The notes beneath the pieces were generated by a model. The model was not told the origin of the DNA, did not search any database, and was given only the letters and a program-made list of their open reading frames with translations. This document shows, piece by piece, positions 22,881 through 49,719 of a DNA stretch of 64,000 bases. Source of the DNA: Candidatus Iainarchaeum sp. (GTDB lineage Archaea; Iainarchaeota; Iainarchaeia; Iainarchaeales; JAAZKV01); contig JAPLVR010000006.1 of NCBI GenBank assembly GCA_026397015.1, positions 128,001 through 192,000 of the forward strand, in the 5' to 3' direction. Within the stretch, counting starts at the first letter, position 1. Each line of letters begins with the position of its first letter. A program made the position numbers and the translations under genes.

Positions 22881-22989
22881 TTTTTGCCAGCGCTTTTTTC
22901 GCCAGCCTTTTTTTCAAAAGGGCAAGTTCGCTATCAGCGAACACATTTTTGCCAGCGTTTTTTCGCCGGCCTTTTTTCTAAAAAGGCCG
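22881..22989. repeat. REP-like palindromic repeat, two copies (22881-22923, 22946-22989) separated by hairpin GTTCGCT-ATC-AGCGAAC
   Basis: TTTTTGCCAGCG(C)TTTTTTCGCC(A/G)GCCTTTTTT..AAAA(A/G)GGC; the same family occurs at 24079, 34131, 45455 and 49590. Confidence 0.85.
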
Positions 22990-23094
22990 AATGCAGCCGC
23001 CGGGACTCTTTTCCTGTTGGCTGGTAGTTTGAGGTTGGTTGTTTGTAGAGGGGTGCATTCGAATCCGTTCTGATTGATTTACCTTTCCTTCCAT
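22978..23094 (-). CDS. 38-aa ORF reading into the att-like repeat (possible gene remnant)
   Basis: SD AGGAG then ATG 23094; MEGKVNQSERIRMHPSTNNQPQTTSQQEKSPGGCIRPF*. Confidence 0.35.
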   Translation of the reverse strand: MEGKVNQSERIRMHPSTNNQPQTTSQQEKSPGGCIRPF

Positions 23095-23107
23095 TTAATC
23101 AACTCCT

Positions 23108-23878
23108 TTATTGAATTAAGCCAATAAAAACACAATTTTCTTTATCATAAGCAATTGCTCCGTCAGTATAGCTCGAATTTAACATTATTTCTCTGTGACC
23201 AGTGGTGCTTCCCATCCACAAACTTAATGCCCTTATACAATTTGACCCGGCAATATTTTCCCCAGAACTATACCCTGACCTCAAAATTATTCCAAAGCGG
23301 CTAACATAATCATCAAAATATTTCCCATCAGAATCTTGATGATCACAACGTGTATAATTACAAAGATCCTTAGACGCTTGAAATTTTACCAATTCATAAA
23401 TCTTGTCATTCCATTTTAGCCGCATTAAGCCATTCTCTTCCCGGATATCATTAAGCTCTTCAAAACTTTCGACATCAATTTCTTTTTGCGATTTACTTGG
23501 TTGGCTTATCACAATTTCTACTAAATCGGGTTCACTTATTGGATCACTTTGATTATCATTCACCAAATCATTTTCAATCGGGTTATTGTTATCCAAGAAA
23601 GGTTGGCTATTAGAATCAATTTCTTGATTAGGGTTCATTTTTATTTGCAACAATAAATACGCCCCAAATGTAACAAGCACTAATAATATTATACAAGCAA
23701 AAATTGTTTCAGCATGGGGAAATGAACTCATACCGTGCGCTATTTTAATATGGGTTCTTGGGCGAGGGTTAAATCTATTGTGTCTTTTTTGAACAGAATA
23801 ATGATAATTGCACAAGCCTGAAGAGAAATACTTCCATTTAGCTATTTTTTTTCCACATCTTTTGCAATGATAACTCAT
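23108..23878 (-). CDS. CAP/SCP domain protein with N-terminal Zn-finger-like motif and TM segment
   Basis: CKRC...CNYH, TM helix, then LNDIREENGL, GENIA, WMGSTTGHREIML. Confidence 0.85.
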   Translation of the reverse strand: MSYHCKRCGKKIAKWKYFSSGLCNYHYSVQKRHNRFNPRPRTHIKIAHGMSSFPHAETIFACIILLVLVTFGAYLLLQIKMNPNQEIDSNSQPFLDNNNPIENDLVNDNQSDPISEPDLVEIVISQPSKSQKEIDVESFEELNDIREENGLMRLKWNDKIYELVKFQASKDLCNYTRCDHQDSDGKYFDDYVSRFGIILRSGYSSGENIAGSNCIRALSLWMGSTTGHREIMLNSSYTDGAIAYDKENCVFIGLIQ

Positions 23879-23948
23879 TCAAATCAACTCTTATGTTTAG
23901 AACAGGTATTCGCACCCACTACAGACTCAAAACTACCAACTAATTGAA

Positions 23949-23973
23949 TGCAGCCGCCGGGGCTCGAACCCGA
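23949..23973 (-). other. Isolated tRNA 3' fragment (T arm + acceptor 3' strand)
   Basis: Minus strand reads TCGGG-TTCGAGC-CCCGG-CGGCTGC-A, with no matching 5' half upstream. Confidence 0.7.
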
Positions 23974-23996
23974 AGCAATCTTTTTTTGTACCATTA

Positions 23997-24068
23997 TGCG
24001 GCTTACGGGAATTGAACCCGTTCATCCACCTTGGGAAGGTGGAATCATAACCGTTAGACCAAAGCCGC
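23997..24068 (-). tRNA. tRNA-Gly(CCC), intronless
   Basis: Acceptor GCGGCTT/AAGCCGC, anticodon arm CCACC-TT CCC AA-GGTGG, T loop TTCAATT. Confidence 0.95.
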
Positions 24069-24078
24069 CCTAAACTTA

Positions 24079-24152
24079 TTTTCGCCAGCCTTTTGGAAAA
24101 AGGCACGCCTGCAAAGCAGGCAATTTTTTGCCGGCTTTTTTCTAAAAAGCCG
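24079..24152. repeat. REP-like palindromic repeat, two copies (24079-24104, 24124-24152) around hairpin GCCTGC-AAA-GCAGGC
   Basis: TTTTCGCCAGCCTTTTGGAAAAAGGC and TTTTTTGCCGGCTTTTTTCTAAAAAGCCG; fills the spacer between tRNA-Arg and tRNA-Gly. Confidence 0.85.
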
Positions 24153-24154
24153 AA

Positions 24155-24243
24155 CGGGCCTAGAGGGAATCGAACCCCCATCCCAAGATCTCTTCACATT
24201 AAAATTCCGAAGTCTTGTCGGCTATCCATTACCACATAGGCCC
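24155..24243 (-). tRNA. tRNA-Arg(TCG) with 17-nt intron at 37/38 (24190-24206)
   Basis: Acceptor GGGCCTA/TAGGCCC, anticodon stem CAAGA/TCTTG, BHB central helix CTTC/GAAG with AG|A bulge. Confidence 0.92.
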
Positions 24244-24271
24244 CTTGAAAGAATAATTCGCCGCGCTATTT

Positions 24272-25192
24272 TTAATCTTTGGGTAAGGGCACATTCAGAT
24301 TGTTCATCAAGGCCAGTCGCCTGCCAACTATTTTTGGCAAAATTTTTTCCGAATCGATAACTGGACCCTCATAAAATTCATTTGGATTAACAACCCCTGA
24401 TAAAATATTCTTTTGATTTTTGAGAACCAGATTTGGCGGCATAAAACCAAATCTTTTCCAAATCAAAAATCTGTTGTATTTCATATTATTTTTGAAGCCA
24501 ATATTGTGCATCCACAGAATGATGTTCTGATCACCCATTATTGACAGCCTATAAGAATCGTGATTAATTGGGCCCTTTATTTGGCGAGACATCGAAAACT
24601 GAAACCCAGTGTTAATTAAAAGTTTTCCAACACCATCGCATAATTCTTTTGAACAAATGCCCACACAAATAATAGGATATGTGTGCCGCTTCTTATGAAT
24701 TTCTCTATAACCTGACCCGCCCCTTTTTTTGAAATAAATTGTGCCATCTGTATCAAATAACCCTCTTAAAAAACCATAAATAACATCCAAATTCCTCGAA
24801 TTGAGAATTTGTTCTGGAATAGCCACTGTCAAAGTTTTCTTCCCATATGGAAAGCCCTGAGAGTGCATAAATTCGCACACTTTTCTGTTGCAAATCAGAA
24901 ACCCATAAGTATTTCTGTGAGGAAAAAATTTTGGTTTTATTTTAATACCAAAAACCCTTTCAAATAACGGAACAACGTGTTCATCGTAATATTCTTTTTC
25001 GTCAACATTACCGCTTATGTCAAGTTCGAAATGCCTGTTGTTGCGATTCCGCAAATATCCGTCGCCCGCATGAATGCCGCAAACTTCTGCCAAGTCCGGC
25101 GTCATTTCAAGATTCAAAGTTGACTCGCCCAAAGAATTTTGATTCAGCAATTTAAAACTGTTTTGTGAGTTTGATGCCGGTGATGGATTCAT
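24272..25192 (-). CDS. Free-standing LAGLIDADG (intein-type DOD) endonuclease domain protein
   Basis: Two LAGLIDADG helices, LAEVCGIHAGDG and FLRGLFDTDG; no intein splicing termini. Confidence 0.85.
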   Translation of the reverse strand: MNPSPASNSQNSFKLLNQNSLGESTLNLEMTPDLAEVCGIHAGDGYLRNRNNRHFELDISGNVDEKEYYDEHVVPLFERVFGIKIKPKFFPHRNTYGFLICNRKVCEFMHSQGFPYGKKTLTVAIPEQILNSRNLDVIYGFLRGLFDTDGTIYFKKRGGSGYREIHKKRHTYPIICVGICSKELCDGVGKLLINTGFQFSMSRQIKGPINHDSYRLSIMGDQNIILWMHNIGFKNNMKYNRFLIWKRFGFMPPNLVLKNQKNILSGVVNPNEFYEGPVIDSEKILPKIVGRRLALMNNLNVPLPKD

Positions 25193-25359
25193 TCCACCAC
25201 CTCATCATCAAAATCGTCTTCAGAATTCTCCGATACATATTCGAGAATCCAGAGTTCTCTCGAATCCAAGAGTTCCGGGCAATTCCTTGCCAACTTCTTT
25301 ACTGATTTTATTTCCTCTTCTGAGGGAACAAGACAATCATCAATATTAGAAAAAACCAT
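25189..25359 (-). CDS. Small acidic hypothetical protein
   Basis: Strong SD GGAGGTG before ATG 25359; its TGA stop overlaps the LAGLIDADG ATG. Confidence 0.55.
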   Translation of the reverse strand: MVFSNIDDCLVPSEEEIKSVKKLARNCPELLDSRELWILEYVSENSEDDFDDEVVE

Positions 25360-25518
25360 TTGAGCCACCTCCGCAAAAAAATTCCAAGAGCGGAGGTGGC
25401 AATGGCTTTCATTTGACGCAATCATTTAATAATTCTGGCAAAAGGCATCTGAAAGGCTTATTAAAGGTTTCTTTCAAGAAAATTGTTAAAGTTTTTTGAG
25501 AGCTTGCTGGTGAGCGGA

Positions 25519-25674
25519 ATGAAGAAGTGCGGAACATGCAATACAACGATAACACGGGATTACATAAACTTTAAGTGCCCGTCATGTGGAAAGGGGCAGA
25601 TAGTGCGGTGCGAGCACTGCAAGGAAACTGCGAAAACATACACTTGCACAGAGTGCGGATTCATGGGCCCATAA
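25519..25674 (+). CDS. Zinc-ribbon protein (DUF1610/HVO_2753-like)
   Basis: Four CxxC pairs ending CGFMGP; conserved position upstream of EF-1beta. Confidence 0.9.
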   Translation: MKKCGTCNTTITRDYINFKCPSCGKGQIVRCEHCKETAKTYTCTECGFMGP

Positions 25675-25710
25675 AAGGGCTAAAAAAAATTCTTATTTCT
25701 GGTGAAAGCA

Positions 25711-25968
25711 ATGGGAAACGCGCTCGTAATATTCAAGGTCTTTGCTGACCCTGAACAGCTGAATTCTGTCGAAGCAGAACTGAGGAAAATTGACACCGAC
25801 CAATTCAGGGATTTGAAGCGCGAACCAATAGGATTCGGTATTGAAGTAATAAGGGTCGGATATATTATTCCCGACAAGGTGGACGGGGCGCTGGAAAAGC
25901 TTGAAAATGCGGTAAGAACGGTAAAGGGAATAAATGAAGTCGAAGTTGATGGTGTAACATTATTGTAA
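25711..25968 (+). CDS. ef1b: Translation elongation factor 1-beta
   Basis: REPIGFGI motif, size and context. Confidence 0.92.
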   Translation: MGNALVIFKVFADPEQLNSVEAELRKIDTDQFRDLKREPIGFGIEVIRVGYIIPDKVDGALEKLENAVRTVKGINEVEVDGVTLL

Positions 25969-26049
25969 AAACAATTCGCAATTTTGAATGCAAATCAGTG
26001 GCACGGAGCCAAGCGAGTTTTTTTATTACTTTTTCAGCCTAATTCTTGG

Positions 26050-28089
26050 ATGATAACTTCTATTACGCTTCAAAACTGGCGCACGCACAAAAATAGCACG
26101 CTCGAATTTGGGAAGGGAACTAATGTAATAGTCGGAATAATGGGTTCCGGAAAAAGCTCGGTGATAAATGCAATAAGTTACGCGCTCTTCGGAACTTTCC
26201 CCGCGCTACAAAGCAAACAGGTTTCTCTCGGCGAAATAATAATGGCGCGACCAAACAAATGCGATAATGCGAAGGTAATTCTTCATTTCGAGTATGGCGG
26301 CGGAAATTATAGGATTGAAAGAGAAATTTCGGAGGAAAAAACAAACTACTCAAAACTGTTTGAAGATGAAAAACTGGTTGCCGGACCGAAACAAAAAGAT
26401 GTCAACGAGGCAATTGAAAAAATACTTGAAATCAACTATGAACTTTTCAGCAGGGCGATTTACGCGGAACAAAACGAAATGGATTTTTTTCTCAAACTGA
26501 GCCCGCGGGAAAGAAAACAAAAATTTGACGAACTCCTTGGATTGGAGAAATATGAGAATGCAAGGAAAAATGCCGTTGCCTTGCAAAACCAATTTGCGAA
26601 AGCCAACAAAGAGAGAAACTCACTCCTAAAAGAACAAAAAAAATTGCACGACCCGAAAGAAGAGGCTGCGCTTCGAAAAAAAATAACTGCTGATGAAAAA
26701 GAACTCGAAGAGATTGAAAAGAAAATTACTGGGGCGAAAAAAGAGGAGAAAATGCTGAGAGAAAAGTTGAAAACCGAGGAAGAGAAGGAAAAAGAACACA
26801 AGCTTTATTCCGATTTGCTGATAAAGACAAATTCAAAAATTGAAACACTGCGGGAGCAGATTGAAAAAAGCAAGGCAATTTCACCCAAAGAAATAACAAA
26901 AAAAATCGAAAAGGCGGAAAAAACGCTTGAAGAAAGAGGGAAGGAACTTGAAGGCTGCGAAAAAGAAATTGAAAAACTGGAAAACGAATCCAAGAAACAG
27001 GGAGAAGAAGCGAGGGTTTGTGCGTACAAGAAAAAAGAGCTTGAGAGGGAATTAAAAGAAATCGCCCATCTGAAGGGGAAATGCCCCACCTGCAAAAGGG
27101 AACTTGATGATACACACAAAAACAAACTCGCGGAGGAAATTAACTCAAAAATTTCTGAAATTTCTGCCGCAGGCGAAAAATACGAAAGAGAAGCGAAAAT
27201 CTTTGAAGAAAAAATTGCGAAAGAAAAAAAACAAAGGCGGGCGCGCGAAGAGGAAATTAAAACTCTGCGAAAAGAATTTTACGAACTGGAGGCGGGGCAG
27301 AGGGGGGCAAAGGAAGCGGAAGAAAAGGCAAAGCAGTTTGAGGCGCTGAAAAATGAGCCTGAAAATTTGAAAAAAGAAATAAAGAAAATCGGGTTCAGCA
27401 AGGAAGAGCTGGAGAAGGCGAGAAAAGCGTTTTTTGAAAAGCAGTCGGCGGCGGAACTGCTCGAAGAAAAAGTTTCCTCAAAAAAAGAGCTCTTGAAAAA
27501 CTACGGAAACGGGTTGCAGAAAATCGCCGAGATGAAAAAACTTTTCGAGGAAACCGAAAAAAAAATTGAAAAAACCGAAAGAGCGGCAAATGCGCTCGGA
27601 GTTTTCGGAAATTGCCTGGCAGCAACGCAAACGAGCCTGAGAGAATCTCTAATTGAAACGGTAAATGACGCGACCTCGAACATATGGGAAAAAGTTTACC
27701 CTTACAAGGACTTCACTAACGCAAAACTTTCTATAGAAGAAAACGGGTATGAACTAAAAGTGCTAACGCGAAACAATGAATGGGTGAGGGTTGAAGGGAT
27801 ACTTTCGGGCGGAGAAAGAAGCGCCGCTGCCATCTGCATAAGAATTGCGTTCGCGCTTGTGCTCACAAAGAAATTGTCGATGCTGATACTGGACGAGCCG
27901 ACGCATAACCTTGACACGAACGCGGTTGAAACACTCGGAAAAATGCTGAGGGAAGAACTGCCAAGAATAATCGACCAAATATTTGTTATTACCCATGATA
28001 AACAGTTGGAAAGCGCGGCATCAAGCAATCTTTACACTCTGAAAAGGGACAAAAATTCCGACGGGGCAACTGTAATAGAAACAATTTAA
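26050..28089 (+). CDS. rad50: Rad50/SMC-like ATPase
   Basis: Walker A GIMGSGKSS, Q-loop, coiled coil with CPTC zinc hook, LSGGE, LDEPT and ITH. Confidence 0.9.
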   Translation: MITSITLQNWRTHKNSTLEFGKGTNVIVGIMGSGKSSVINAISYALFGTFPALQSKQVSLGEIIMARPNKCDNAKVILHFEYGGGNYRIEREISEEKTNYSKLFEDEKLVAGPKQKDVNEAIEKILEINYELFSRAIYAEQNEMDFFLKLSPRERKQKFDELLGLEKYENARKNAVALQNQFAKANKERNSLLKEQKKLHDPKEEAALRKKITADEKELEEIEKKITGAKKEEKMLREKLKTEEEKEKEHKLYSDLLIKTNSKIETLREQIEKSKAISPKEITKKIEKAEKTLEERGKELEGCEKEIEKLENESKKQGEEARVCAYKKKELERELKEIAHLKGKCPTCKRELDDTHKNKLAEEINSKISEISAAGEKYEREAKIFEEKIAKEKKQRRAREEEIKTLRKEFYELEAGQRGAKEAEEKAKQFEALKNEPENLKKEIKKIGFSKEELEKARKAFFEKQSAAELLEEKVSSKKELLKNYGNGLQKIAEMKKLFEETEKKIEKTERAANALGVFGNCLAATQTSLRESLIETVNDATSNIWEKVYPYKDFTNAKLSIEENGYELKVLTRNNEWVRVEGILSGGERSAAAICIRIAFALVLTKKLSMLILDEPTHNLDTNAVETLGKMLREELPRIIDQIFVITHDKQLESAASSNLYTLKRDKNSDGATVIETI

Positions 28090-32952: not shown

Positions 32953-34044
32953 TCACCCGAAGGGGCGCGCATTCCTGCGGAGCATAATCTTCGCTCCGAC
33001 CTTATCGATTAATTTCTCGTAAATAATATTAATCTCATTTGGGCTAAGCCGCGCCCTCAAATCCGCCTCAATCAAAACACTTGGAAAAACATACTCCTTG
33101 TGCAAAGCACTCAAAGAAAAAACAACTTCGGCAATTTCGTCCGCACAACCCTTCAAATCCGCTATAGAATTTTTTTTGCAAATGAACTCGACCCTCAGAG
33201 GCTTGTCAAATTTCGAAACCTTCAGGTAAAAAACAAAAATGCTTTCAGACCATTCCTTTGAATAATCCTTCAGAATTGCATGGTTATCAGTATTTTTTGT
33301 GTAAGGGAAAGCGAATGTTCTTTCGCCCTCGTTCAAAAAATAATCCAAAAAAATCGAGTCGAAGGTTTTTTCGAGCGTATTCGGTGCAACTGAAACTCCC
33401 TTGGCTTTCGGAAGGATTTCCTCGCGCATTATTTGATTAAACCTTGAGCCCCTCGAATCCTCAACACACGCAATCAAAGTGCAGCTGTTTTTCTCCGCAA
33501 TCTTGTAGAGGATTTGAAAGTGTTCGACAATCGATTTGTAATCTTCATTTATTGCGGATTCCCTGCGCGGCTTGTCCTGGTACTGCGGAACGATTGAGCC
33601 GTCGATGAAAAAATATTTTGGCTTAAATTTTTCAATCACCTCGATTGAAAGGGAAACTTCCTTGCGCAAACGCTCTAAGGAAGTGCTCTGCCCGACCTCG
33701 TCATTTTCAAGCGAAGAGCGGAGCATAATCGGTTCGGGAAAGGAAACTATTTTCGGAAAATAAGCGGAGCTTTGAAGCAACCCCTTATCATATTCAAAAA
33801 CCACCCCTGCTGTTTTAATCAGCAGCAAATCAAGGAAAGCAAGTTTTTTCGGGGCGAAGCCGGAATCAACTCCCGCAACTACTGCTGAAAGTTGCTCGCG
33901 CGCAACTGTTTCGACAATTTTTTCCCCGGAATTCGGCGCATTTTGAAATTTCAAATAAGAAAGTTTGTTTCCCAACGATTCGTGGAACGAATGATACTGC
34001 TGAATAGCAGAAACTGCCCTATCCATAAAATCGTTGATGGCCAT
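32953..34044 (-). CDS. nurA: NurA nuclease
   Basis: AGVDSG, FIDGS, PLRVEF and PSVLIEAD; upstream of herA. Confidence 0.9.
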   Translation of the reverse strand: MAINDFMDRAVSAIQQYHSFHESLGNKLSYLKFQNAPNSGEKIVETVAREQLSAVVAGVDSGFAPKKLAFLDLLLIKTAGVVFEYDKGLLQSSAYFPKIVSFPEPIMLRSSLENDEVGQSTSLERLRKEVSLSIEVIEKFKPKYFFIDGSIVPQYQDKPRRESAINEDYKSIVEHFQILYKIAEKNSCTLIACVEDSRGSRFNQIMREEILPKAKGVSVAPNTLEKTFDSIFLDYFLNEGERTFAFPYTKNTDNHAILKDYSKEWSESIFVFYLKVSKFDKPLRVEFICKKNSIADLKGCADEIAEVVFSLSALHKEYVFPSVLIEADLRARLSPNEINIIYEKLIDKVGAKIMLRRNARPFG

Positions 34045-34130
34045 GAAGTCAGCCAATAAAAACAATATAGAAGGAATTCTTTAATATAAAAAGGTTTGGA
34101 AGGGTGCGTGCCAGTGGAAAAATCTAATGG

Positions 34131-34191
34131 TTTTGCCAGGGCTTTTTTCGCCGGCCCTTGTTTTTCGCCAGCCTTTTTCGAAAAAAGGCTG
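34131..34191. repeat. REP-like palindromic repeat (one partial and one full copy)
   Basis: TTTTGCCAGGGCTTTTTTCGCCGGCC followed by TTTTTCGCCAGCCTTTTTCGAAAAAAGGCTG. Confidence 0.85.
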
Positions 34192-34226
34192 ATAAGAAGA
34201 TTTGCAGGGAGACGTGCCGGTGGAAA

Positions 34227-34475
34227 CTAAAAACCAATTTCTCTTAAAATTTCCTTGGCCTTTTCAGGGGTTAAGCCGTGCCCCAAAAGATAGCTTTCTA
34301 CGTAACCCTTCGAAACCCCCTTCCGCCTAAAAAAGCCAGCATCAATCTTTCTTCTCAAAAGAGTTTTTGCAGGGTCTTTGGTACGAATGGCTCGTACCAA
34401 AATCCTGGAAACAGGCGACCCTCCATGATGCGGCTTACCGCCGGGAAACCCTCTTGGTTTTACTACAGGACACAT
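34227..34475 (-). CDS. Small orphan basic protein
   Basis: 82 aa with its own TTTATA box; basic, Pro/Gly-rich N-terminus. Confidence 0.6.
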   Translation of the reverse strand: MCPVVKPRGFPGGKPHHGGSPVSRILVRAIRTKDPAKTLLRRKIDAGFFRRKGVSKGYVESYLLGHGLTPEKAKEILREIGF

Positions 34476-34582
34476 ATGAGATAACCACTGTAGAGGAAAT
34501 ATAAATGCTTTTCCATTCTGTTAGCCCTAACTAATTTTCAATAAAAAAAGGTTTCCGGGCGGCGTGCCGGTGAAATCCCAAA

Positions 34583-35335
34583 TTAACTCCGAGTTGAAAT
34601 CGCCCTTTTCCTAATTTCAAGTATTTCTGTCCACGTCGTTGGATTCTCGGTAACCAGACGCGCCAAAAAACTTTTCGAACATTTTTGTCCCCATTCCATC
34701 TTAAGCCGCACAGCTACAAGAGCTGAACGGAGCCCCAAAATAGCTTCAGCTTTATAATTTTTTACTGGAAAAAACGGCCCAAACTCAAGATCTTTTATTT
34801 TTTTTGATTCGTAGCTTCCGGTCAAAAAATTACTTTGCGCAAACGGATTAAGGCGATTAACGAATAAATCTTGGAAAGTAAAAGCATAAGCGGCGACTTC
34901 ATTTCCGCCAAGAATATGAACAAACTCGTGATTCAATAACTCAATAGTCTCAGGGCGCCTCAAAGACCTTTCAGGAACAAAAATGTGCATACCTTTATTA
35001 GTCCGAAATCCGGCCGCTTCCATTTCGCCAGATGCAAACGACAAAGTTGAAAAAATATCGTCAGGAACGATACAAACCCTTTGAATTAATTTCTGCACTA
35101 ACACTTTATTATTGCCCAAACCGAGAACCGAAAGAACGCTTCTCGCCTCTTTTCGAAGAGGCGCCGAGAAAGGGCGCCTGTATCTTTCACGACCATATTT
35201 TTGCAAAACCTTGGCCCTTATCCCATTCTGTGCAGCCGATAGGGGATTCATTAGTAATGGATTTTTGGGCTCACGCTTACCCATTACTGCTAAAAACTTT
35301 TTCGCCCCTTGGGAAGAGCGAGCCGTTGAAACCAT
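34583..35335 (-). CDS. Orphan zincin-like (HExxH) protein with basic N-terminus
   Basis: LLNHEFVHILGGNE; start moved to ATG 35335 because the longer ORF overlaps the tRNA. Confidence 0.7.
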   Translation of the reverse strand: MVSTARSSQGAKKFLAVMGKREPKNPLLMNPLSAAQNGIRAKVLQKYGRERYRRPFSAPLRKEARSVLSVLGLGNNKVLVQKLIQRVCIVPDDIFSTLSFASGEMEAAGFRTNKGMHIFVPERSLRRPETIELLNHEFVHILGGNEVAAYAFTFQDLFVNRLNPFAQSNFLTGSYESKKIKDLEFGPFFPVKNYKAEAILGLRSALVAVRLKMEWGQKCSKSFLARLVTENPTTWTEILEIRKRAISTRS

Positions 35336-35382
35336 GTTTAATTTATGCAAAAGGGCATATTTATTGATTTGTATCCAAAAAA

Positions 35383-35453
35383 TGGACCGTGCGGGAATCG
35401 AACCCACATCGAATCAATGCCATTGATCCAGCCTACCTTTGGCAGAACGGCCC
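35383..35453 (-). tRNA. tRNA-Ala(GGC)
   Basis: Acceptor GGGCCGT/ACGGTCC with G3:U70, anticodon loop AT GGC AT (A32-U38), T loop TTCGATT; U10-U25 mismatch in the D stem. Confidence 0.88.
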
Positions 35454-35555
35454 CGACACGAAAAATAATCTGGGAAAAATTATTAAAGCACACCAATCAA
35501 CACATTCCCGGCCGCACCAAACCATTTAAATACCTTCATATGAAGAATAATTCAT

Positions 35556-35876
35556 ATGAAAGTGGAGTCATTTGAACAGGCCTGCGGGCTCAACTGCTTC
35601 GAGATCTTGGGGAACAAACTCAGGGTTTCAATAATAAAATCCCTCATAAAAAAACCGAAAACAGTGCAGAAACTTTGCGACGAGCTCAAAAGGGAACAGA
35701 GCGCGGTCAGCCACGCGCTCGCGCAGCTGAGGGAATGCAATTTTGTGGATTACAAAAGAAAGGGAAAAGAGAAAGAATACTTTCTCAAAAGCGGAATCTT
35801 CACCAAAAAAATGAACAAACCGCTGTTCGAAGCCATTGAAGAGCACGCAAAGAAACACTGCAGAGTGAGACGATGA
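35556..35876 (+). CDS. ArsR/SmtB family transcriptional regulator
   Basis: FEILGNKLRVSII...EQSAVSHALAQLR winged HTH; ATGA-coupled to iscS. Confidence 0.88.
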   Translation: MKVESFEQACGLNCFEILGNKLRVSIIKSLIKKPKTVQKLCDELKREQSAVSHALAQLRECNFVDYKRKGKEKEYFLKSGIFTKKMNKPLFEAIEEHAKKHCRVRR

Positions 35877-37069
35877 AAAAACCGAAGGAAATTTACCTGG
35901 ATTACAGTGCAACGACGCCTGTGCGCGAAGAAGTGCTGAAAGAGGCGCTGCCTTACTTTTCGGAAAAATTCGGGAACCCGAGCAGTTTCCATTCACGAGG
36001 ATTAGAAGCGAAAAATGCGATTGAAAGCGCGAGAAAAAGAATCGCGAAGATTTTGAATTGCGAAGCGGAGGAAATAATTTTCTGCGGAAGCGGAACAGAA
36101 AGCATAAACCTTGCAATAAAAGGAATTGCTTTCCGCGAGCTGGCGAAAGGAAAAAGAGGGCATTTTATTACGCAAAAAACGGAGCACGAAGCGGTTCTAA
36201 AAACTATGGACTGGCTCAAGAGAATTGGATTTGAAATCACTTACCTCAATGTTGATGAAAACGGATTAATTGATTTGGGAGAATTGACGCGGAGCATAAA
36301 GGAAGACACTTTGTTAGTTTCAATAATGTATGCGAACAACGAAGTGGGAACAATCCAGCCAATAAAAGAAATTGCCGAAATTTGCCACAAAAAAAATACT
36401 TTACTTCATACAGATGCATGTCAGGCGTCAGAATATTTGGATTTGAACGTAAAAAAACTGGGCGCTGATTTGATGACACTGAACGGAAGCAAGGTTTATT
36501 CGTTCAAAGGAACGGGACTGCTTTACAAAAGAAAAGAAATTGAAATTGAAGCGCTGATACACGGCGGGGGGCAGGAAAGTGGGGCGAGGTCTGGAACGGA
36601 AAATGTGCCGGGAATAGTTGCGCTTGCAAAGGCGCTTGAAATTGCGGAGTGGGAGAAAAAAAAGGAAGCAAAACGTATTACGGCGCTGAGGGATTATTTC
36701 ATTAAAAGAGTGGAAAAGGAAATTCCGAAGGCGAAGCTGAACGGGCACAGGACAAAAAGGCTTCCCAACAACGTCAACTTTTCATTCGAAGGGATTGAGG
36801 GAGAATCGCTCATACTTTACATGAATGAGGAAGGAGTAAGACTCAGCACTGGCTCCGCTTGCAGCTCAAAATCGCTGGACCCGAGCCACGTGCTAACAGC
36901 AATGGGCATAGACCACGGAACTGCGCACGGAAGCATCAGGTTTTCGCTCGGAAAAGAAACGACAAAAAAAGAATTGGATTTTGTAATTGGAAAACTCAAG
37001 GAAAAGGTAGAATTCTTGAGGAGAATTTCCCCGGTTTGGAAAAAAGGAAAAGGAGTGAGGAAAAAATGA
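35873..37069 (+). CDS. iscS: Cysteine desulfurase (IscS/NifS)
   Basis: YLDYSATTP, GNPSS, ANNEVG, HTDACQ, RSGTEN and STGSACSS. Confidence 0.96.
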   Translation: MKKPKEIYLDYSATTPVREEVLKEALPYFSEKFGNPSSFHSRGLEAKNAIESARKRIAKILNCEAEEIIFCGSGTESINLAIKGIAFRELAKGKRGHFITQKTEHEAVLKTMDWLKRIGFEITYLNVDENGLIDLGELTRSIKEDTLLVSIMYANNEVGTIQPIKEIAEICHKKNTLLHTDACQASEYLDLNVKKLGADLMTLNGSKVYSFKGTGLLYKRKEIEIEALIHGGGQESGARSGTENVPGIVALAKALEIAEWEKKKEAKRITALRDYFIKRVEKEIPKAKLNGHRTKRLPNNVNFSFEGIEGESLILYMNEEGVRLSTGSACSSKSLDPSHVLTAMGIDHGTAHGSIRFSLGKETTKKELDFVIGKLKEKVEFLRRISPVWKKGKGVRKK

Positions 37070-42695: not shown

Positions 42696-42698
42696 GCT

Positions 42699-42770
42699 GG
42701 GCCGGTGGTCTAGCGGTATGACATCACCCTTACAAGGTGAGAGTCGACGGTTCGAATCCGTCTCGGCCCA
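42699..42770 (+). tRNA. tRNA-Val(TAC)
   Basis: Acceptor GGGCCGG/TCGGCCC, anticodon arm TCACC-CT TAC AA-GGTGA, T loop TTCGAAT. Confidence 0.96.
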
Positions 42771-42819
42771 TTTTTCATAATAAGCATTTTAACTATTTTT
42801 TGAAACGCGGCGAAAAAAA

Positions 42820-45382: not shown

Positions 45383-45416
45383 CCTTTTAAACAATAACAA
45401 CAAAAATTATTTTTAT

Positions 45417-45593
45417 GCGACCGTAGTCTAACGGTTATGATTCAACCTTGCCAACGGCCTTTTTAGAAAAAAGGCCGGCGAAAAAAACTGGCGAAAATGC
45501 TTCGCACCAGCAGTCTTTATGAAAAAGATCAACAAAAAAATTAGAAAAAAGAGCAACCAGGTTGAGGCCCGGGTCCAATTCCCGGCGGTCGCA
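45417..45593 (+). tRNA. tRNA-Gly(GCC) with 105-nt intron at 37/38 (45454-45558)
   Basis: Acceptor GCGACCG/CGGTCGC, anticodon stem CAACC/GGTTG, central helix TTGC/GCAA with CC|A bulge; atypical T loop TCCAATT. Confidence 0.88.
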
Positions 45594-45617
45594 TTACTCA
45601 AAAAAATTGGTGGTTAA

Positions 45618-45761: not shown

Positions 45762-45777
45762 GTGAAAAAGTGATTGA

Positions 45778-46434
45778 ATGAGAACAAAAATAGCATTAAT
45801 TTTCGGGCTTGTCCTGCTTTCATTCGCCATCGCAATTTATTCATACCAATTCATGCCGGACCAAATGGCTTCCCACTGGGGAATAAGCGGCGAGGCGAAC
45901 GGCTATTCGGACAAAATGTTCGCGACATTTTCAATCCCTGTGCTTATCGCTGTTTTTACGGCGATTTTTTTGCTTCTGCCAAAAATCGACCCCATGAAGG
46001 AGAACATAAAAAAATTCTATTCTTATTATGAAAAATTTGTAATTGTTTTTATCGGGTTCATGCTTTTTTTGCAAATAATGATGCTGCTGTGGAATGCCGG
46101 CATGAAAATAAGCTTTAATTTAATCCTTCCGATTGCGATGGGCGCGCTATTTTACTTTTTGGGAATTCTGCTCGAAAAGGCGAAAAGAAACTGGACTATA
46201 GGGATAAGGACTCCGTGGACGATGAGCAGCGAAAAAGTTTGGAACAAGACGCACAAGCTGGCGGGAAAGGTGTTTCGCGCAGCCGGAATAATTTCCATAA
46301 TCGGAGTGCTAATTCCGGTATATTCATTCCTTTTCGTAATATTTCCCGTAATGCTGGCTGCGACATATCTGATAATTTATTCATGTTTGGAATACAAGAA
46401 GGAACCGAAAGGGAAACGCAGAACTAAACGATAG
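45778..46434 (+). CDS. SdpI/DUF1648 family membrane protein
   Basis: ASHWGISGEANG, NWTIGIRTPWT and WNKTHKLAG. Confidence 0.92.
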   Translation: MRTKIALIFGLVLLSFAIAIYSYQFMPDQMASHWGISGEANGYSDKMFATFSIPVLIAVFTAIFLLLPKIDPMKENIKKFYSYYEKFVIVFIGFMLFLQIMMLLWNAGMKISFNLILPIAMGALFYFLGILLEKAKRNWTIGIRTPWTMSSEKVWNKTHKLAGKVFRAAGIISIIGVLIPVYSFLFVIFPVMLAATYLIIYSCLEYKKEPKGKRRTKR

Positions 46435-46963
46435 ATATCTGAATTTTTTTGTTTACATCAAAAGATCCCGGAACGTCCAAGGAAGCTGCGAGTTCCCACC
46501 TTATCGGACCGGGAGACTGGGAAAATGGCTGAAGGGCTTTCAAAACATTTATGACGCCGTTTTGTGGCACATTTCCCTGATTAAGCGCGGGAGCGCTAAT
46601 TTCAAACGAATACTCTGAAAAACCCGAATATTCCTTTTCTCCGTCAAGAACAGCCTTGAACTCATAAACAACAACATCCTTGATATCGTATTCCATTGAA
46701 TACCTTCCCTGATTTCTGGAGGACTGTGAATTTATTCCAAAATCACGAGGCCCCATCGGGTCGAGTCCACTGCCGGCTCTTCTGTCTGTAACGGTCCTGA
46801 CGACCTGCTGTTTTTGCGTTCCAGAAAGGGCCACTCTCAACTCGCGGGCCTTTTTCGGGGAATTCAATGTCAACAAAAGCTTTCCCGTTATCAATTCGCC
46901 GGAAGAATAATTCTGCTTCGGAAGTTGAATTTCAATTTTTCCTTCGCCAAACCCAAAAACCAT
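46424..46963 (-). CDS. SpoOM/arrestin-N-like hypothetical protein
   Basis: FGFGEGKIEIQL..NYSSGELITG, YSFEI and WELAASLDVP pattern. Confidence 0.65.
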   Translation of the reverse strand: MVFGFGEGKIEIQLPKQNYSSGELITGKLLLTLNSPKKARELRVALSGTQKQQVVRTVTDRRAGSGLDPMGPRDFGINSQSSRNQGRYSMEYDIKDVVVYEFKAVLDGEKEYSGFSEYSFEISAPALNQGNVPQNGVINVLKALQPFSQSPGPIRWELAASLDVPGSFDVNKKIQISIV

Positions 46964-46991
46964 CAAATTCCCCCTAAAAAAATAAATTTTG

Positions 46992-47954
46992 TTACCTGCT
47001 TCTTTTTTTTCCAAAATTTTTTGCCTTTCCAGCTTTTTTCCTAACGCGCCCGCGCCCAAGTTTTTTCGGGTAAAGGACCCTCCATGCAAGGATCCTCTTT
47101 ATCCTAGTTGAAGAATCGTGATGCTTTACAACCTGCAAATAAATTTTTGAGATTGCAAACCAGTAGCCCACAATGAAAACAGAAACGCCGAAAGCGGCTC
47201 CAATGTGCCTCGCCAACTCAAGGTCAGCACTAAGCGAAGAACCCAAAATCGCGTGAAGCCCGAAAAAAAGCAAAATTATATTTGCAACGGCGCCCGCGAA
47301 AAATGAAGTGATCGCGCAAAGCACGAATAAGAACAGCAGCACGAACACGAGCGCAATAAAAATTTCTTTTTCCCTTTGATGGGTGAGGCGCCACGACTCG
47401 AGAATTGCATCTTTAATTTTTATCCCTTTATTAATCAAAATAAGCGTCGGAAAAAGCAGCCTAATGGAACTATACAAGACGCACAAAAAGTAAATAATTG
47501 AAAGGAAAATAAGAGAATACGCGAGAAGCTCCGACCGCACAACTGAGGCGGCGTAATTCGTAAGCAAAATCCCCATTAGGGAAAGAAGCTGAATAACCCT
47601 GTATCGCTTTTCAAGATTCCAAACAAGAAGATACCAAAGCTCTAAAATTTGAAGAAAAAAAACATCAACGATTTTGAAAACCGAAATTTTTATTGATTGA
47701 AAGCCGGAGTTTTTAAGCGAAACCCTGATTAGGCAAACCATTCCCGCAAAGACAAGTGCCTGTGCAACGTAATAAATGTCGCTGAAAATCGCTTCGGCTT
47801 CATAAGAGAAATAAAACTGCCCCCAAAAAATTTCGACCATTCTTTCAAGGACGAAAATAAGCAGGAACATTATGAAAAAGAAAAGCAGGTACATTTTCGC
47901 TTTTCCATGGAGAACCCACTTGTATGTGGATTCAATAACCGCCTCGTAATCCAT
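46992..47954 (-). CDS. Multi-pass membrane protein
   Basis: Several TM helices; DAILESWRLT motif. Confidence 0.75.
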   Translation of the reverse strand: MDYEAVIESTYKWVLHGKAKMYLLFFFIMFLLIFVLERMVEIFWGQFYFSYEAEAIFSDIYYVAQALVFAGMVCLIRVSLKNSGFQSIKISVFKIVDVFFLQILELWYLLVWNLEKRYRVIQLLSLMGILLTNYAASVVRSELLAYSLIFLSIIYFLCVLYSSIRLLFPTLILINKGIKIKDAILESWRLTHQREKEIFIALVFVLLFLFVLCAITSFFAGAVANIILLFFGLHAILGSSLSADLELARHIGAAFGVSVFIVGYWFAISKIYLQVVKHHDSSTRIKRILAWRVLYPKKLGRGRVRKKAGKAKNFGKKRSR

Positions 47955-48012
47955 GCTTAAATAACACTTTTCTTATTATTAAGAATTACCTTAAACCAAA
48001 ATTGCAAAAAAT

Positions 48013-48645
48013 CTAGTGAAGGGCTTCATCCAAAAAAGGCTTTATTTGGGCAAAAACCTCCTCAATCGGGACATTCGCGTCAATCACCTTTATATTTTCC
48101 TCCGGAAGAAGCTTTGGTTGCCCCAAAAAAAGCCCCCTCAAATTTGAAATGAACCCAATGCTTCGAAATTTGTCGGATTCTTTTCTTTTTTCCGACTTTT
48201 CGGAATGCATGCGCCTATGGGCTTCTTTCGGATTAACGTCAAGAATCAGGGCTAAATCGGGCGCCAAAAAGTTTTTGTGTGCGGCAAAAACTTTGTTAAA
48301 ATCTTTTCCCTGTGCTGTTTGGTAGGCAATGCTCGAATATTTGTAGCGGTCGCAAATCACGACAAAATTTTTTTCCAAAGAAGGTTTGATGATATTTTCA
48401 ATATGCCACTTTCTGTCATCCACAAAAAGCTGGAATATTTCTTCGGCATAATCCGCCGAAGATTTCTGCTTTTTGAAATATTCTCTCAATTTTAATCCGT
48501 GCGGGCCGCGCGTGGGCTCATCCGTTATGAGAATATTGTCATACTTTTTGCTTTTATCATAAATGTATTCGAAAGTTTTCTTCACCATGGTTCCTTTGCC
48601 GCAGCCTGAAATGCCGTCAAAAACAATAAAAGTCCCCTTCCTCAT
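48013..48645 (-). CDS. tmk: Thymidylate kinase
   Basis: FIVFDGISGCGKGT, EPT, CDRYKYSSIAYQ and PDL. Confidence 0.92.
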   Translation of the reverse strand: MRKGTFIVFDGISGCGKGTMVKKTFEYIYDKSKKYDNILITDEPTRGPHGLKLREYFKKQKSSADYAEEIFQLFVDDRKWHIENIIKPSLEKNFVVICDRYKYSSIAYQTAQGKDFNKVFAAHKNFLAPDLALILDVNPKEAHRRMHSEKSEKRKESDKFRSIGFISNLRGLFLGQPKLLPEENIKVIDANVPIEEVFAQIKPFLDEALH

Positions 48646-48672
48646 CAAACCACTGCCAACGCAATATCCTCT

Positions 48673-49317
48673 TTATTTGTCCAAAACCCTTTTTACCCCT
48701 TTCCAAACCATTTCGTGAATTGCTTCAATTGAAAGAAGCTTTTCCTTTTCAACACAGGAAATTTTTTTCCAACCCAACTTTTCAGTATTGCGTTCGTACT
48801 CCCCGAAAATCGCGCGCTGAAAATTAGAATCCGATTCATGCTGGTCTTTTTTTTGATTTCTGCCATTCATTAATTTTTCAGCGATATTCGGCGGAACGGA
48901 AAGAACCAGCACCAAATCCGGTTTTGGCAATTTTTTACAAACAAAATTAATCCACTCCCGCAAAGAATCTTTTTCGTTTTCTTTTGCAAGCGCGACCTGA
49001 TAAGTAAGGGTCGAGGTAAAATACCTGCTCATCAAAACGGTTTTTCCTTCAGAGAGCGCATTTTCAATCTGTTTTTTTGATTCATAAAAATCGGCCATAT
49101 AAAGCAGGGAGATGAATTCTGCCGGCAAATCCTCTTTTCTGCCAAATTTTCCTTCCAAGTAATCGTCGACAACCTTTCCGAAAGAAACTCCGTGCTTCGG
49201 AAAATGCATTTGAACAAGCCGGGCGCCTTCTTTTTGCAAATGTTCCGCAAGAAGATTTAGCTGAGTTGTTTTGCCGGAAGCATCCGTGCCTTCCAAAACA
49301 ATTAATTTTCCTTTCAT
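48673..49317 (-). CDS. tmk: Thymidylate kinase paralog
   Basis: LIVLEGTDASGKTTQ, FP, SRYFTSTLTYQ, PKPDL and DQHE. Confidence 0.88.
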   Translation of the reverse strand: MKGKLIVLEGTDASGKTTQLNLLAEHLQKEGARLVQMHFPKHGVSFGKVVDDYLEGKFGRKEDLPAEFISLLYMADFYESKKQIENALSEGKTVLMSRYFTSTLTYQVALAKENEKDSLREWINFVCKKLPKPDLVLVLSVPPNIAEKLMNGRNQKKDQHESDSNFQRAIFGEYERNTEKLGWKKISCVEKEKLLSIEAIHEMVWKGVKRVLDK

Positions 49318-49430
49318 CTGGAATCCAAAAAGCAGTGAAGCTCCATCCCCTTAAAAAACCATTTCTTGAATTTCACGCCCGAGAGACAAATTTAAAAAAG
49401 AAACCAAAGCTAATCTATCTGATGCAAGTC

Positions 49431-49531
49431 GACAGCTTCGCTGTCAAAGTGTCATTGCGAAGCAATGGCGCGTGTAATGCATGATTCGGATGCATACACA
49501 CCAAGAAAGTGCCATCGACGTACGATGGCAC
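49431..49531 (+). repeat. Chain of four hairpins upstream of tRNA-Gly(TCC)
   Basis: GACAGC-TTC-GCTGTC, GTGTCATTGC-GAA-GCAATGGCGC, GTGT(A)ATGCAT...ATGCATACAC and GTGCCATCG-ACGTA-CGATGGCAC. Confidence 0.75.
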
Positions 49532-49552
49532 GCGTAACGCATATGCAATAGC

Positions 49553-49719
49553 GCGTCCGTGATGTAACGGTAGCATGAAAGCCTTCCATCGGCCTTTTTC
49601 AAAGGCCGGCGAAAAGCACTGTCTTCGCCTTCGGCTCGACAGAGCGTGCTTCGCAGGTTTTGATTTAAAAAAAGGATTGAAGAAAGCTTTCCGTTGGGGT
49701 TCAAATCCCCACGGGCGCA
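49553..49719 (+). tRNA. tRNA-Gly(TCC) with 96-nt intron at 37/38 (49589-49684)
   Basis: Acceptor GCGTCCG/CGGGCGC, anticodon stem AAAGC/GCTTT, central helix CTTC/GAAG with AA|A bulge, T loop TTCAAAT. Confidence 0.9.

Follow-up and report, generated by a model that had tools for sequence, protein, structure and literature searches.

A hairpin-plus-tail repeat at tRNA genes and in tRNA introns of a Candidatus Iainarchaeum genome: possibly a tiny mobile element that may help explain the origin of tRNA introns

Why should one short palindrome stand behind tRNA genes, in front of them, and at the very start of tRNA introns within a single archaeal locus? The question is posed by a stretch of 64,000 nucleotides (nt) of Candidatus Iainarchaeum sp. 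(GenBank assembly GCA_026397015.1, contig JAPLVR010000006.1, positions 128,001 to 192,000 of the forward strand), hereafter the window, in which a sequence-only reading had proposed a tRNA-associated family of palindromic repeats. The answer tentatively favored here, which we hold to be plausible though somewhat short of probable, is that the repeats are very small non-autonomous palindromic DNA elements of DPANN archaea, moved in trans by an enzyme and tolerated, possibly even used, at tRNA processing sites.

Repeat copies and tRNA genes in the window

A covariance model (R1) was built from 33 gap-free archaeal copies, namely those of the 54 unique archaeal copies that are 32 nt long, and the window was searched with filters off. 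Seven full copies at five sites were recovered, with scores of 24.8-43.2 bits; the other hits with E < 0.01 are only reverse-strand reads of these seven palindromes, and the rest have E >= 0.02. The core pattern CCTTTTN{1,8}AAAGGCYGGCGAAAA matches the window six times, against a mean of 0.00 in 100 dinucleotide shuffles, and the 14-mer AAGGCYGGCGAAAA, allowed up to two mismatches, matches ten times, against 3.65 +/- 1.73 in shuffles (largest 9). With seven model hits, and six pattern matches where 100 shuffles gave none, the proposed repeat family is genuine. All eight positions at which the repeat had been placed hold the described sequence, seven as full copies and the eighth (34131-34159) as a tail-only partial repeat. 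The copies and the small hairpins that separate them are as follows.

22944-22991, minus strand: copy A (R1 hit 22958-22991; 42.6 bits, E 1.3e-12), directly after a duplicated tRNA 3' end; its sequence reads TT, hairpin CGGCCTTTTT-AG-AAAAAAGGCCG (22967-22989), tail GCGAAAAAA, second tail-like unit CGCTGGCAAAAATG
22926-22942, minus strand: small G+C hairpin GTTCGC-TGATA-GCGAAC (sequence and fold), separating copies A and B
22881-22927, minus strand: copy B (R1 hit 22894-22927; 24.8 bits, E 2.6e-6; also a pattern match), with a weaker hairpin GCCCTTTTG-AAAAAAAGGC, then TGGCGAAAAAA and GCGCTGGCAAAAA
24123-24154, minus strand: copy C (R1 37.2 bits); TT, hairpin CGGCTTTTT-AG-AAAAAAGCCG, then GCAAAAAA
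24107-24121, minus strand: small hairpin GCCTGC-TTT-GCAGGC (sequence and fold), separating copies C and D
24077-24108, minus strand: copy D (R1 37.9 bits); hairpin GCCTTTTT-CC-AAAAGGC, then TGGCGAAAA
34160-34193, minus strand: copy E (R1 43.0 bits); hairpin CAGCCTTTTTT-CG-AAAAAGGCTG, then GCGAAAAA
34131-34159, minus strand: tail-only partial repeat GGGCCGGCGAAAAAAGCCCTGGCAAAAC (R1 13.3 bits, E 0.032)
45453-45499, plus strand: copy F (R1 hit 45453-45486; 43.2 bits, and fold); hairpin, GCGAAAAAAA, CTGGCGAAAATG; opens the tRNA-Gly(GCC) intron
49588-49617, plus strand: copy G (R1 35.7 bits); hairpin CGGCCTTTTT-C-AAAGGCCG, then GCGAAAA; opens the tRNA-Gly(UCC) intron

The layout of palindrome, small hairpin, palindrome described in the sequence-only reading is present at 22881-22991 and at 24077-24154, where the paired copies are spaced 65 and 46 nt apart, start to start. 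In the source genome the unit often extends into a second tail-like CTGGC(A/G)AAAA. Five of the seven window copies carry a T5 or T6 run in the sense strand (copy B has T4, copy E T6), and two of the T5 copies lie inside introns. A separate scan of the window for T-tract/A-tract hairpins with G+C clamps, with the A-arm cut off at A4, recovered four of the five repeat sites plus three weak others at 8857, 40468, and 47669; the copy in the Gly(UCC) intron was not caught because its A3 arm falls below the cut-off.

Five tRNAs are found in the window by ARAGORN at default settings and Rfam, and seven by ARAGORN with introns allowed. The two tRNAs with long introns are found in intron mode only, having been overlooked by both default ARAGORN and Rfam.

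20648-20720, minus strand: tRNA-Ala(CGC) (ARAGORN)
23997-24068, minus strand: tRNA-Gly(CCC) (ARAGORN, Rfam); 5' end at 24068
24155-24243, minus strand: tRNA-Arg(UCG) (ARAGORN, Rfam); discriminator at 24155, 17-nt intron
35383-35453, minus strand: tRNA-Ala(GGC) (ARAGORN)
42698-42771, plus strand: tRNA-Val(UAC) (ARAGORN)
45417-45593, plus strand: tRNA-Gly(GCC) (ARAGORN intron mode and fold); 105-nt intron, 45454-45558, at 37/38
49553-49719, plus strand: tRNA-Gly(UCC) (ARAGORN intron mode and fold); 96-nt intron, 49589-49684, at 37/38

ARAGORN labels the last of these a selenocysteine tRNA because the intron border is ambiguous; the loop CTTCCA and the stem AAAGC/GCTTT identify it as Gly(UCC).

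Four of the five repeat sites are tied to tRNA sequence: one after tRNA-Arg and before tRNA-Gly(CCC), one after a tRNA 3' fragment, and one in each of the two long glycine introns. The site of copy E is the only one that does not adjoin a tRNA. The discriminators of tRNA-Arg (24155) and of the tRNA-end copy (22992) are each followed by TT and then the repeat, copy C starting 2 nt past the former. In both glycine introns a single base separates A37 (45453 and 49588) from the CGGCC that begins the repeat (45455 and 49590). Copy D faces the 5' end of tRNA-Gly(CCC), from which its tail ends 10 nt and its A-tract 22 nt away, and copy B ends about 20 nt ahead of the TATA-like TTGATATAAA of an EamA gene. 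No copy adjoins tRNA-Ala(CGC), tRNA-Ala(GGC), or tRNA-Val, and the repeat is absent from the 17-nt intron of tRNA-Arg. A tail-only match, GCGGCGAAAAAAA at 42804-42818 on the plus strand (R1 13.6 bits, E 0.024), lies 33 nt past tRNA-Val and may be a remnant or chance.

Both glycine introns display the archaeal bulge-helix-bulge (BHB) motif, with two 3-nt bulges and a 4-bp helix at the canonical 37/38 position, as judged from sequence and folds. In tRNA-Gly(GCC), TTGC (32-35) pairs with GCAA near the 3' end of the intron, with bulges CAA and ACC or CCA, while in tRNA-Gly(UCC), CTTC pairs with GAAG (49679-49682), with bulges CAT and AAA. The outer BHB helix is replaced in both introns by the local hairpin of the repeat.

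Distribution, pairing, and placement of the unit

A pattern scan of a collection of species-representative genomes, with R (purine) allowed at one tail position, returned at least 125 loci (L001-L125). Record titles divide the listed loci into 48 archaeal and 77 bacterial ones; these counts are lower bounds, and the window genome is not among them. The listed archaeal carriers include Iainarchaeum (among them the complete GW2011_AR10 chromosome), Woese-, Pace-, Micr-, Alti-, and Undinarchaeota, metagenome-assembled genomes (MAGs) labelled 'Thaumarchaeota' and 'Methanobacteriota', and other archaea. The listed bacterial loci belong mostly to Oscillospiraceae and other Clostridia.

The tRNA association extends beyond the window. 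When ARAGORN is run in intron mode, 19 of the 48 listed archaeal loci show a tRNA that contains the motif or is no more than 150 nt away from it, and five tRNAs lie further out; without intron mode the corresponding counts are 10 of 48 and three. None of the 77 listed bacterial look-alike loci has a tRNA within 150 nt (two tRNAs lie further out). The near zone makes up an estimated one-tenth of the examined sequence, so the enrichment for tRNAs is roughly 30-fold. Outside the 19 of 48, the motif in L031 is flanked on either side by tRNA 5' fragments that ARAGORN does not call.

The bacterial look-alikes (e.g., L020, L024, and L068; Butyricicoccus pullicaecorum DSM 23266) have the same 25-nt hairpin plus GGCGAAAA and the same CAG/CTG and CGG/CCG covariation, followed by CTTT, and stand within a multi-hairpin repeat of about 370 nt. 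They have no link to tRNAs, no abutting duplications, and no matches in the plasmid and phage collections. Their resemblance may reflect either homology or convergence, and they serve here as a control set.

Across the copies, the unit consists of a constant 5' module of about 30 nt: a T-tract/A-tract hairpin core, G+C clamps, and an invariant unpaired 3' tail, GCGAAAA. The hairpin has 9-10 bp and takes the form C-R-G-C-C-T(4-6), a loop of 1-4 nt, and A(4-7)-G-G-C-Y-G, with Y a pyrimidine. A variable 3' part commonly follows the module and may contain a second G+C-rich hairpin (hairpin 2) and sometimes another copy of the module; several sub-families that differ in this part are common to genomes with unrelated flanking genes.

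The invariance of most stem columns is uninformative because the search pattern itself fixed them, and the informative positions in the covariation test are the three bases ahead of CCTTTT plus Y. Among 57 unique archaeal copies, 30 have CAG..CTG, 18 have CGG..CCG, two are mixed, and seven have other 5' bases. The R/Y pair is AU in 21 rows of the 33-row alignment, GC in eight, GU in one, and another combination in three; its covariation score and its double-change count were reached by none of 500 shuffles. Both pair types occur within sub-families that share one 3' part (L006 versus L015; L040 and L096 versus L063 and L076), so the double change happened more than once. The pairing of the hairpin is selected, as RNA or as folded DNA. 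Hairpin 2 is not conserved across sub-families, and neither are positions -4 to -12 upstream of the hairpin in the 57 archaeal copies. The 5' flank has no fixed word (A at -5 in 26 of 57, T or A at -4 in 45 of 57), the conserved unpaired motif being 3' of the stem.

No Rfam family fits the repeat: the window searched at gathering score gave only tRNA hits, and 10 related loci searched at E <= 0.1 gave only tRNA plus one sub-threshold tmRNA hit. A hammerhead or other known ribozyme or RNA family was rejected on the lack of an Rfam match and the absence, by eye, of a CUGANGA core.

Copies occur at tRNAs in several positions. Sense copies start 1-3 nt past a discriminator (tRNA-Arg and the tRNA fragment in the window; L029, L088, and L078; variant copies in L074 and L106), open an intron (Gly(GCC) and Gly(UCC) in the window; Leu(CAA) in L074 and L085), or stand 10-48 nt upstream of a tRNA (Gly(CCC) in the window; L013, L094, L115, and L106, where the distance is 36-48 nt). 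In the tRNA-Ser(CGA) intron of L061, the first copy is a variant and the second an exact copy in sense. Antisense copies abut tRNA 5' ends (L004, L073), lie upstream of tRNAs (L002, L089, L124) or 65 nt downstream of a tRNA-Val (L015), or stand within an intron (L009). The start of the repeat is often 0-3 nt from a tRNA processing site, be it the discriminator, the 5' end, or the 5' splice site, and copies thereby lie where RNA processing would remove them (3' trailers, 5' leaders, introns), which agrees with the earlier suggestion of removal by tRNA processing. The companion claim, that they are always in sense and at a fixed offset, holds inside the window and fails in relatives, both at the seven loci with antisense copies and at the four whose upstream sense copies are 36-48 nt away; the rule is therefore a property of the window and not of the family.

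None of 38 copies examined falls inside a credible open reading frame (ORF); those examined are located solely between genes or in tRNA introns and flanks. Within tandem gene pairs, about 14 copies are co-directional with the neighboring genes and about 8 opposite. This mixed orientation favors recognition at the DNA level over a role of the sense RNA.

Several further observations bear on how the motif is arranged in other genomes. Short tandem arrays of variant units, with GGGAAAA or ACGAAAA tails, occur on the minus strand in L014 (about 1850-2000) and L096 (about 150-300), with periods of about 48 and 60 nt. In one MAG, two contigs end (L050, L114) and one starts (L075) inside a repeat that opens with the motif and is 90 nt or more in length, which suggests that a multi-copy element breaks the assembly. 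T-tract/A-tract palindromes that lack the GCGAAAA tail and have AAAC/GTTT or CAAC/GTTG clamps abut tRNA 5' or 3' ends (L015, about 740-760; L106, about 350-374; L124, about 440-463; L009, by tRNA 3' ends), and palindromes that bracket tRNA genes seem general in these genomes.

One alternative is an RNA-level module at tRNA processing sites, which would account for the fixed geometry there. Its stable hairpin, 0-3 nt from the cut, would present the 3-nt bulge to the splicing endonuclease, or else would cap and stabilize the released intron or trailer as a small RNA composed of hairpin 1, GCGAAAA, and hairpin 2. The succession of helix, 3-nt bulge, and hairpin recurs at the 5' splice sites of the two window glycine tRNAs and of tRNA-Leu(CAA) in L074 and L085, two distant lineages in which the repeat has the same place, and a similar geometry is found past discriminators (N73 plus TT or T). 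Among the ARAGORN-called introns of at least 46 nt, seven of ten begin with a T-tract/A-tract hairpin and a GG(C/G)(G/A)AAA tail, one with the hairpin only, and two with neither. Hairpin 2 is itself kept by compensatory changes: the tail and hairpin 2 of the Gly(UCC) intron align with an intergenic unit by a tRNA-Ser in a relative MAG (L073), with stems TGTC/GACA and TACC/GGTA. Such a module is nevertheless hard to reconcile with the 29 of 48 listed archaeal loci that have no tRNA within 150 nt, with the seven tRNA-adjacent exact copies that are antisense to the tRNA, with the mixed orientation to flanking genes, with the lack of an Rfam match, and with the variation of hairpin 2 between sub-families; we consider it quite unlikely.

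Insertion footprints, an occupied site, and transcription

If the copies are mobile, their flanks should be informative. For 55 copies, the 60 nt before the hairpin were aligned to the 160 nt after the tail, with cross-locus pairings as the null. Flanking direct repeats exceed the 95th percentile of the null in 10 copies (2.75 expected) and the 99th in four. They are 14-36 nt long and variable in length, and in seven copies no more than 2 nt separate the end of the upstream repeat from the hairpin foot. The longest flanks copy E in the window.

34192-34227, minus strand: upstream copy of the 36-nt direct repeat; abuts the hairpin foot of copy E and begins right after a stop codon
34086-34120, minus strand: downstream copy of the 36-nt direct repeat; reaches into the TATA-like TTTTTATATTAAAG that precedes the NurA gene (Pfam)

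With its gaps and mismatches, this repeat reaches a local alignment score of 31, against 26 for the 99th percentile of the cross-locus null. Other flanking repeats measure 33 nt (L115), 23 nt (L039, all identical and including the start codon of the downstream gene), 23 nt (L090), 18 nt (L013, a decayed copy of a tRNA-Glu 5' end), 17 nt (L031, a tRNA 5' end), 16 nt (L028), and 14 nt (L009). The inserted piece extends from the hairpin foot to 2-85 nt past the tail and is smallest, at about 33 nt, in L009. There, the copies are nested: inside a tRNA-Ser intron, the GGGAAAAG tail of a variant copy contains an exact copy in inverted orientation. In the bacterial control, 6 of 75 copies exceed the 95th percentile, and none of the six top-scoring alignments, when inspected, abuts the hairpin foot. 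Direct repeats that abut the hairpin foot, together with nested copies, suggest insertion, and several copies thus appear to carry insertion footprints.

Two copies in different settings are nearly the same. Trailer copy A (from 22991) and intron copy F (from 45453) share 32 identical bases, in line with the identity over about 30 nt noted earlier, and agree at 48 of 53 aligned positions. This near-identity may reflect recent copying and is counted for mobility, as is the match of part of the Gly(UCC) intron to the intergenic unit of L073.

Under the favored reading of a mobile element, copies would arise by insertion at staggered breaks made by a trans-acting enzyme, one that would recognize the folded hairpin and tail on DNA and be encoded elsewhere than beside the copies. 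They would persist at places where RNA processing by RNase Z, RNase P, or the splicing endonuclease eliminates them, and the fixed offsets would arise because only certain insertions survive. Within introns, the hairpin would have to begin right past the 3-nt bulge and stand in for the outer BHB helix, which would explain the fixed intron offset. The T-runs on both strands would probably find secondary use as transcription stops or insulators in many copies, and the A/T core could occupy the position of a TATA box. A mobile folded-DNA element of this kind would account for the pairing, the asymmetric tail, the independence of orientation, the nesting, the duplications, and the near-identical copies across settings.

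A solitary, degenerate unit of CRISPR-like type would also combine a hairpin with a 7-8 nt handle, here GCGAAAA(A), and could give paired copies 46-65 nt apart. The spacings of 65 and 46 nt in the window and of 48 nt in L088, the short tandem arrays in L014 and L096, and the repeat-sized flanking duplications all fit such a build. Each of the 125 listed loci, however, has at most two exact copies, the paired copies differ from one another, the would-be spacers are self-complementary hairpins, and no cas gene was found in the window or in 31 flanks (Pfam); this explanation is very improbable.

The site after the tRNA 3' fragment can be compared with a relative. The nearest relative among the fetched loci is L078 (MAG 'archaeon isolate SO_2017_LW3_27'), whose NUDIX gene is 77% identical in nucleotides over 495 bases.

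23948-23975, minus strand: orphan tRNA 3' fragment (T-arm, acceptor CGGCTGC-A, discriminator), identified from sequence; its counterpart in L078 lies at 2028-2062, minus strand

The last 20 nt or so of this fragment are duplicated at 22989-23008. No credible GCAGCCG... start that could supply its 5' half was found in the window or in six relative-MAG loci, and the fragment could be the remnant of an att site or the 3' half of a split tRNA. In L078, TT and a single motif copy come after the tRNA 3' fragment and lead directly into the upstream region of the NUDIX gene. In the window, the duplicate of the fragment precedes two copies that a hairpin separates, and beyond these lie EamA and HAD genes, absent from that place in L078. 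Copy number and loop sequences differ between the two sites, each of which has an intact core. Together with its exon, the 3' part of the Gly(GCC) intron aligns with the region ahead of the orphan fragment in L078.

The surroundings of this site have also been rearranged. The EamA/HAD segment (21277-22836) separates the repeat from the NUDIX gene in the window and is absent from L078 (1950-2010), where the NUDIX upstream region matches window positions 21894-21940 at 92%; the breakpoint in gene content lies at the A-rich tail of the repeat. On the other side, an insert of about 0.95 kb at window positions 22989-23965 contains a single CAP-domain ORF (23108-23878, minus strand). Two copies of a 20-nt tRNA 3' end (22989-23008 and 23946-23965) bracket the insert as a direct repeat, and over about 60 nt its ends are imperfectly inverted (score 37; shuffles 19.6 +/- 4.1, maximum 41). 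The equivalent place in L078 holds a different insert of about 1 kb, flanked by CAGCGGTCGCATT and sharing a 118-nt end. No integrase is present in the CAP insert or its L078 counterpart.

Several results weigh against mobility. No duplication above the null flanks 45 of the 55 copies, and two of the 10 positives are not target duplications (an internal tail repeat in the window; L125, where the repeats lie far from the motif). Target duplications that vary between 14 and 36 nt match no transposase class known to us. No candidate mobilizer was found: transposase, integrase, HUH, and Cas1 families are hit by none of the 67 window ORFs and by none of 120 flanking ORFs from 31 listed loci (Pfam, at the thresholds used), a RAYT (Y1 HUH) gene is not among these ORFs either, and no protein family recurs by the archaeal copies in an all-against-all BLASTP comparison of 874 flanking ORFs. 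The neighbors are all housekeeping genes (aminoacyl-tRNA synthetases, ribosomal proteins, RNA polymerase, MCM, exosome, chaperonin). The site after the tRNA 3' fragment is filled in both the window and L078, at about 77% identity in the neighboring gene, and has been occupied since before the two genomes diverged; at least this shared copy is therefore old or maintained there, and a selected functional signal would give the same picture. Finally, the near-identical 25-nt core across phylum-level lineages could equally well reflect a conserved function. The proposal of a small mobile element is thus strengthened by the footprints at 10 of 55 copies and weakened by the missing mobilizer and the shared site, while the HUH or RAYT gene expected to be flanked by the repeat was not found in the window or in the 31 flanks. 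A transposon that carries its own gene was set aside on the same Pfam and BLASTP results.

The shared site would be expected if the repeat were a fixed cis-acting transcription signal of DPANN archaea, namely a compact two-way stop or insulator, sometimes with a TATA-like promoter core, which selection would maintain next to highly transcribed stable-RNA and housekeeping genes. The 5' arm holds T4-T6, and A4-A7 plus GAAAA(AA) yield two or three T-runs on the opposite strand. At three of the five window sites, the repeat separates the end of one unit from the next promoter, window tRNAs that have no repeat show a plain T5 or T6 in that position, and the neighbors elsewhere are core genes such as those for aminoacyl-tRNA synthetases, ribosomal proteins, RNA polymerase, and MCM. 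The A-tract ends 22-23 nt before the 5' end of tRNA-Gly(CCC) in the window and of tRNA-Pro in L002, the spacing of the TATA-like box of tRNA-Arg.

A stop signal would nonetheless be unexpected in sense at the start of a tRNA intron, where T5 (window) and T6 (L061, L009) occur, so that a terminator role, raised in the sequence-only reading, is possible and yet fits these intron copies poorly. Archaeal transcription termination is not known to need a hairpin, and here the pairing is kept by compensatory change. A plain terminator would account for the T-runs and for the position behind tRNA 3' ends, but a two-way signal explains neither the invariant asymmetric tail nor the flanking duplications. 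Among copies between divergent ORFs, nothing ends at L008 or L063, and only a tRNA start is near in L002; copies that precede a tRNA lie 10-48 nt from it or, in some cases, directly against its 5' end. On balance, a fixed transcription signal is possible but doubtful. The promoter reading by itself was rejected and retained only as a part of the signal reading, as the spacing is right in two cases only (window Gly(CCC), L002), the other upstream copies being 36-48 nt away or abutting the tRNA. The mobile and signal readings are not mutually exclusive because mobile palindromes are often co-opted as stops.

The window, whose G+C content is 41-42%, also contains archaeal housekeeping genes identified by Pfam, namely those for RLI/ABCE1, aRF1, the CCA-adding enzyme, Rad50, HerA, NurA, Hjc, Rpr2, S19e, L31e, aIF6, prefoldin, and the signal recognition particle receptor. 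Directly upstream of tRNA-Arg, a 306-aa ORF (24272-25192, minus strand) has a LAGLIDADG_3 domain (E 5.3e-7). In two different genomes (L028, L029), a tRNA (Leu or Ile) is followed by the motif and then by a class I aminoacyl-tRNA synthetase gene. Cumulative GC skew has its minimum at about 34000-36000 of the window, where gene strand shifts from mostly minus to mostly plus; this could be a replication origin or terminus. Relative to that minimum, repeat copies occupy the minus strand to the left (five copies) and the plus strand to the right (two copies).

Known systems and the origin of tRNA introns

Among known systems, the repetitive extragenic palindromes (REPs) and REPINs mobilized by RAYTs are intergenic palindromes of 20-40 nt with an unpaired motif by the stem, occur in pairs or clusters and in many copies, and can act as stops. 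The window repeat resembles them as a short intergenic or intronic palindrome with seven copies at five sites. It differs in that the conserved motif is the 3' GCGAAAA tail rather than a 5' head of GTAG type, and in that no RAYT or Y1 gene is present in the window or 31 flanks. To our knowledge, REPs are not linked to tRNAs, do not lie in introns, and lack target duplications.

Miniature inverted-repeat transposable elements (MITEs) and other small insertion elements, such as the SM elements of Sulfolobus, Rickettsia palindromic elements, and Correia elements, are small, non-coding, and multi-copy and make target duplications. The present repeats share small size, absence of coding sequence, multiple copies, flanking duplications, and tolerance inside transcribed regions that are processed. 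Unlike MITEs, they have no terminal inverted repeats save the hairpin, the unit is asymmetric with a variable 3' end and measures only about 33 nt at its smallest (L009), and the duplications, at 14-36 nt, are long and of no constant length, where those of MITEs are short and fixed.

IS200/IS605 elements insert next to a fixed tetra- or pentanucleotide and are not known to make target duplications. Recognition of a folded DNA hairpin and a few adjacent bases is plausible here too, and all seven window copies would be in sense on the lagging-strand template if the GC-skew minimum near 35 kb were an origin. In contrast to those elements, a minority of copies has duplications, the 5' side has no fixed word, and no TnpA or TnpB is present in the window or 31 flanks.

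Stereotyped sequences beside tRNA genes are also known in transcription, as archaeal oligo-T terminators and as the conserved tRNA promoter beside the tRNA genes and halves of Nanoarchaeum equitans. T-runs right after tRNA 3' ends and an A/T-rich box that ends about 23 nt before some tRNAs recall these signals, whereas the covarying hairpin, the invariant asymmetric tail, the sense copies in introns, and the variable distance to tRNAs do not.

A parallel within tRNA introns is the transposition of introns in Thermoproteales, for which Fujishima and colleagues reportedly found, in 2010, related sequences in the introns of different tRNA genes. The glycine introns of the window likewise hold related sequences in different tRNA genes of one genome, with the differences that only the 5' module is shared, that it occurs also in trailers, leaders, and intergenic DNA in both orientations, and that some copies have duplications. 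A full-text literature search with six motif strings (four forward-strand, two reverse-complement) returned only one unrelated primer, and none of the papers that keyword searches on DPANN tRNA introns and on mobile tRNA introns brought up describes the motif, as judged by titles and the starts of abstracts. The Thermoproteales intron transposition serves as a positive control in a 2026 preprint on Asgard tRNA introns (10.64898/2026.10.13.758758), which describes the arrival route of archaeal tRNA introns as still open.

It is against this question that a bolder form of the favored reading can be set. The hairpin-plus-tail unit might be a mobile cassette that creates or enlarges tRNA introns in DPANN archaea, its own hairpin supplying the outer splicing helix and its insertion taking place at or by processing sites. 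Because such a cassette carries a T-run stop and a TATA-like core, it could also split an intron-containing tRNA gene into two transcription units. We regard this extension as unlikely but worth stating. If it is true, it would provide a concrete arrival route for archaeal tRNA introns; a two-unit tRNA gene would be a first step towards split tRNA genes, and the orphan tRNA 3' fragment, which in the window and in L078 has copies both before and after it, would represent a product of this kind.

At a practical level, default tRNA finders overlooked two of the three tRNA-Gly genes in the window, which makes the repeat module a useful marker. Should the repeat be merely a transcription signal, it would still be unusually stereotyped and common to several DPANN phyla. 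One module occurs in four settings: at the starts of long introns, behind and in front of tRNAs, in ordinary intergenic DNA, and at sites with insertion footprints. This makes the origin of archaeal tRNA introns and split tRNA genes a testable question in a defined lineage, one that a repeat with the look of a tiny mobile element may help to explain.

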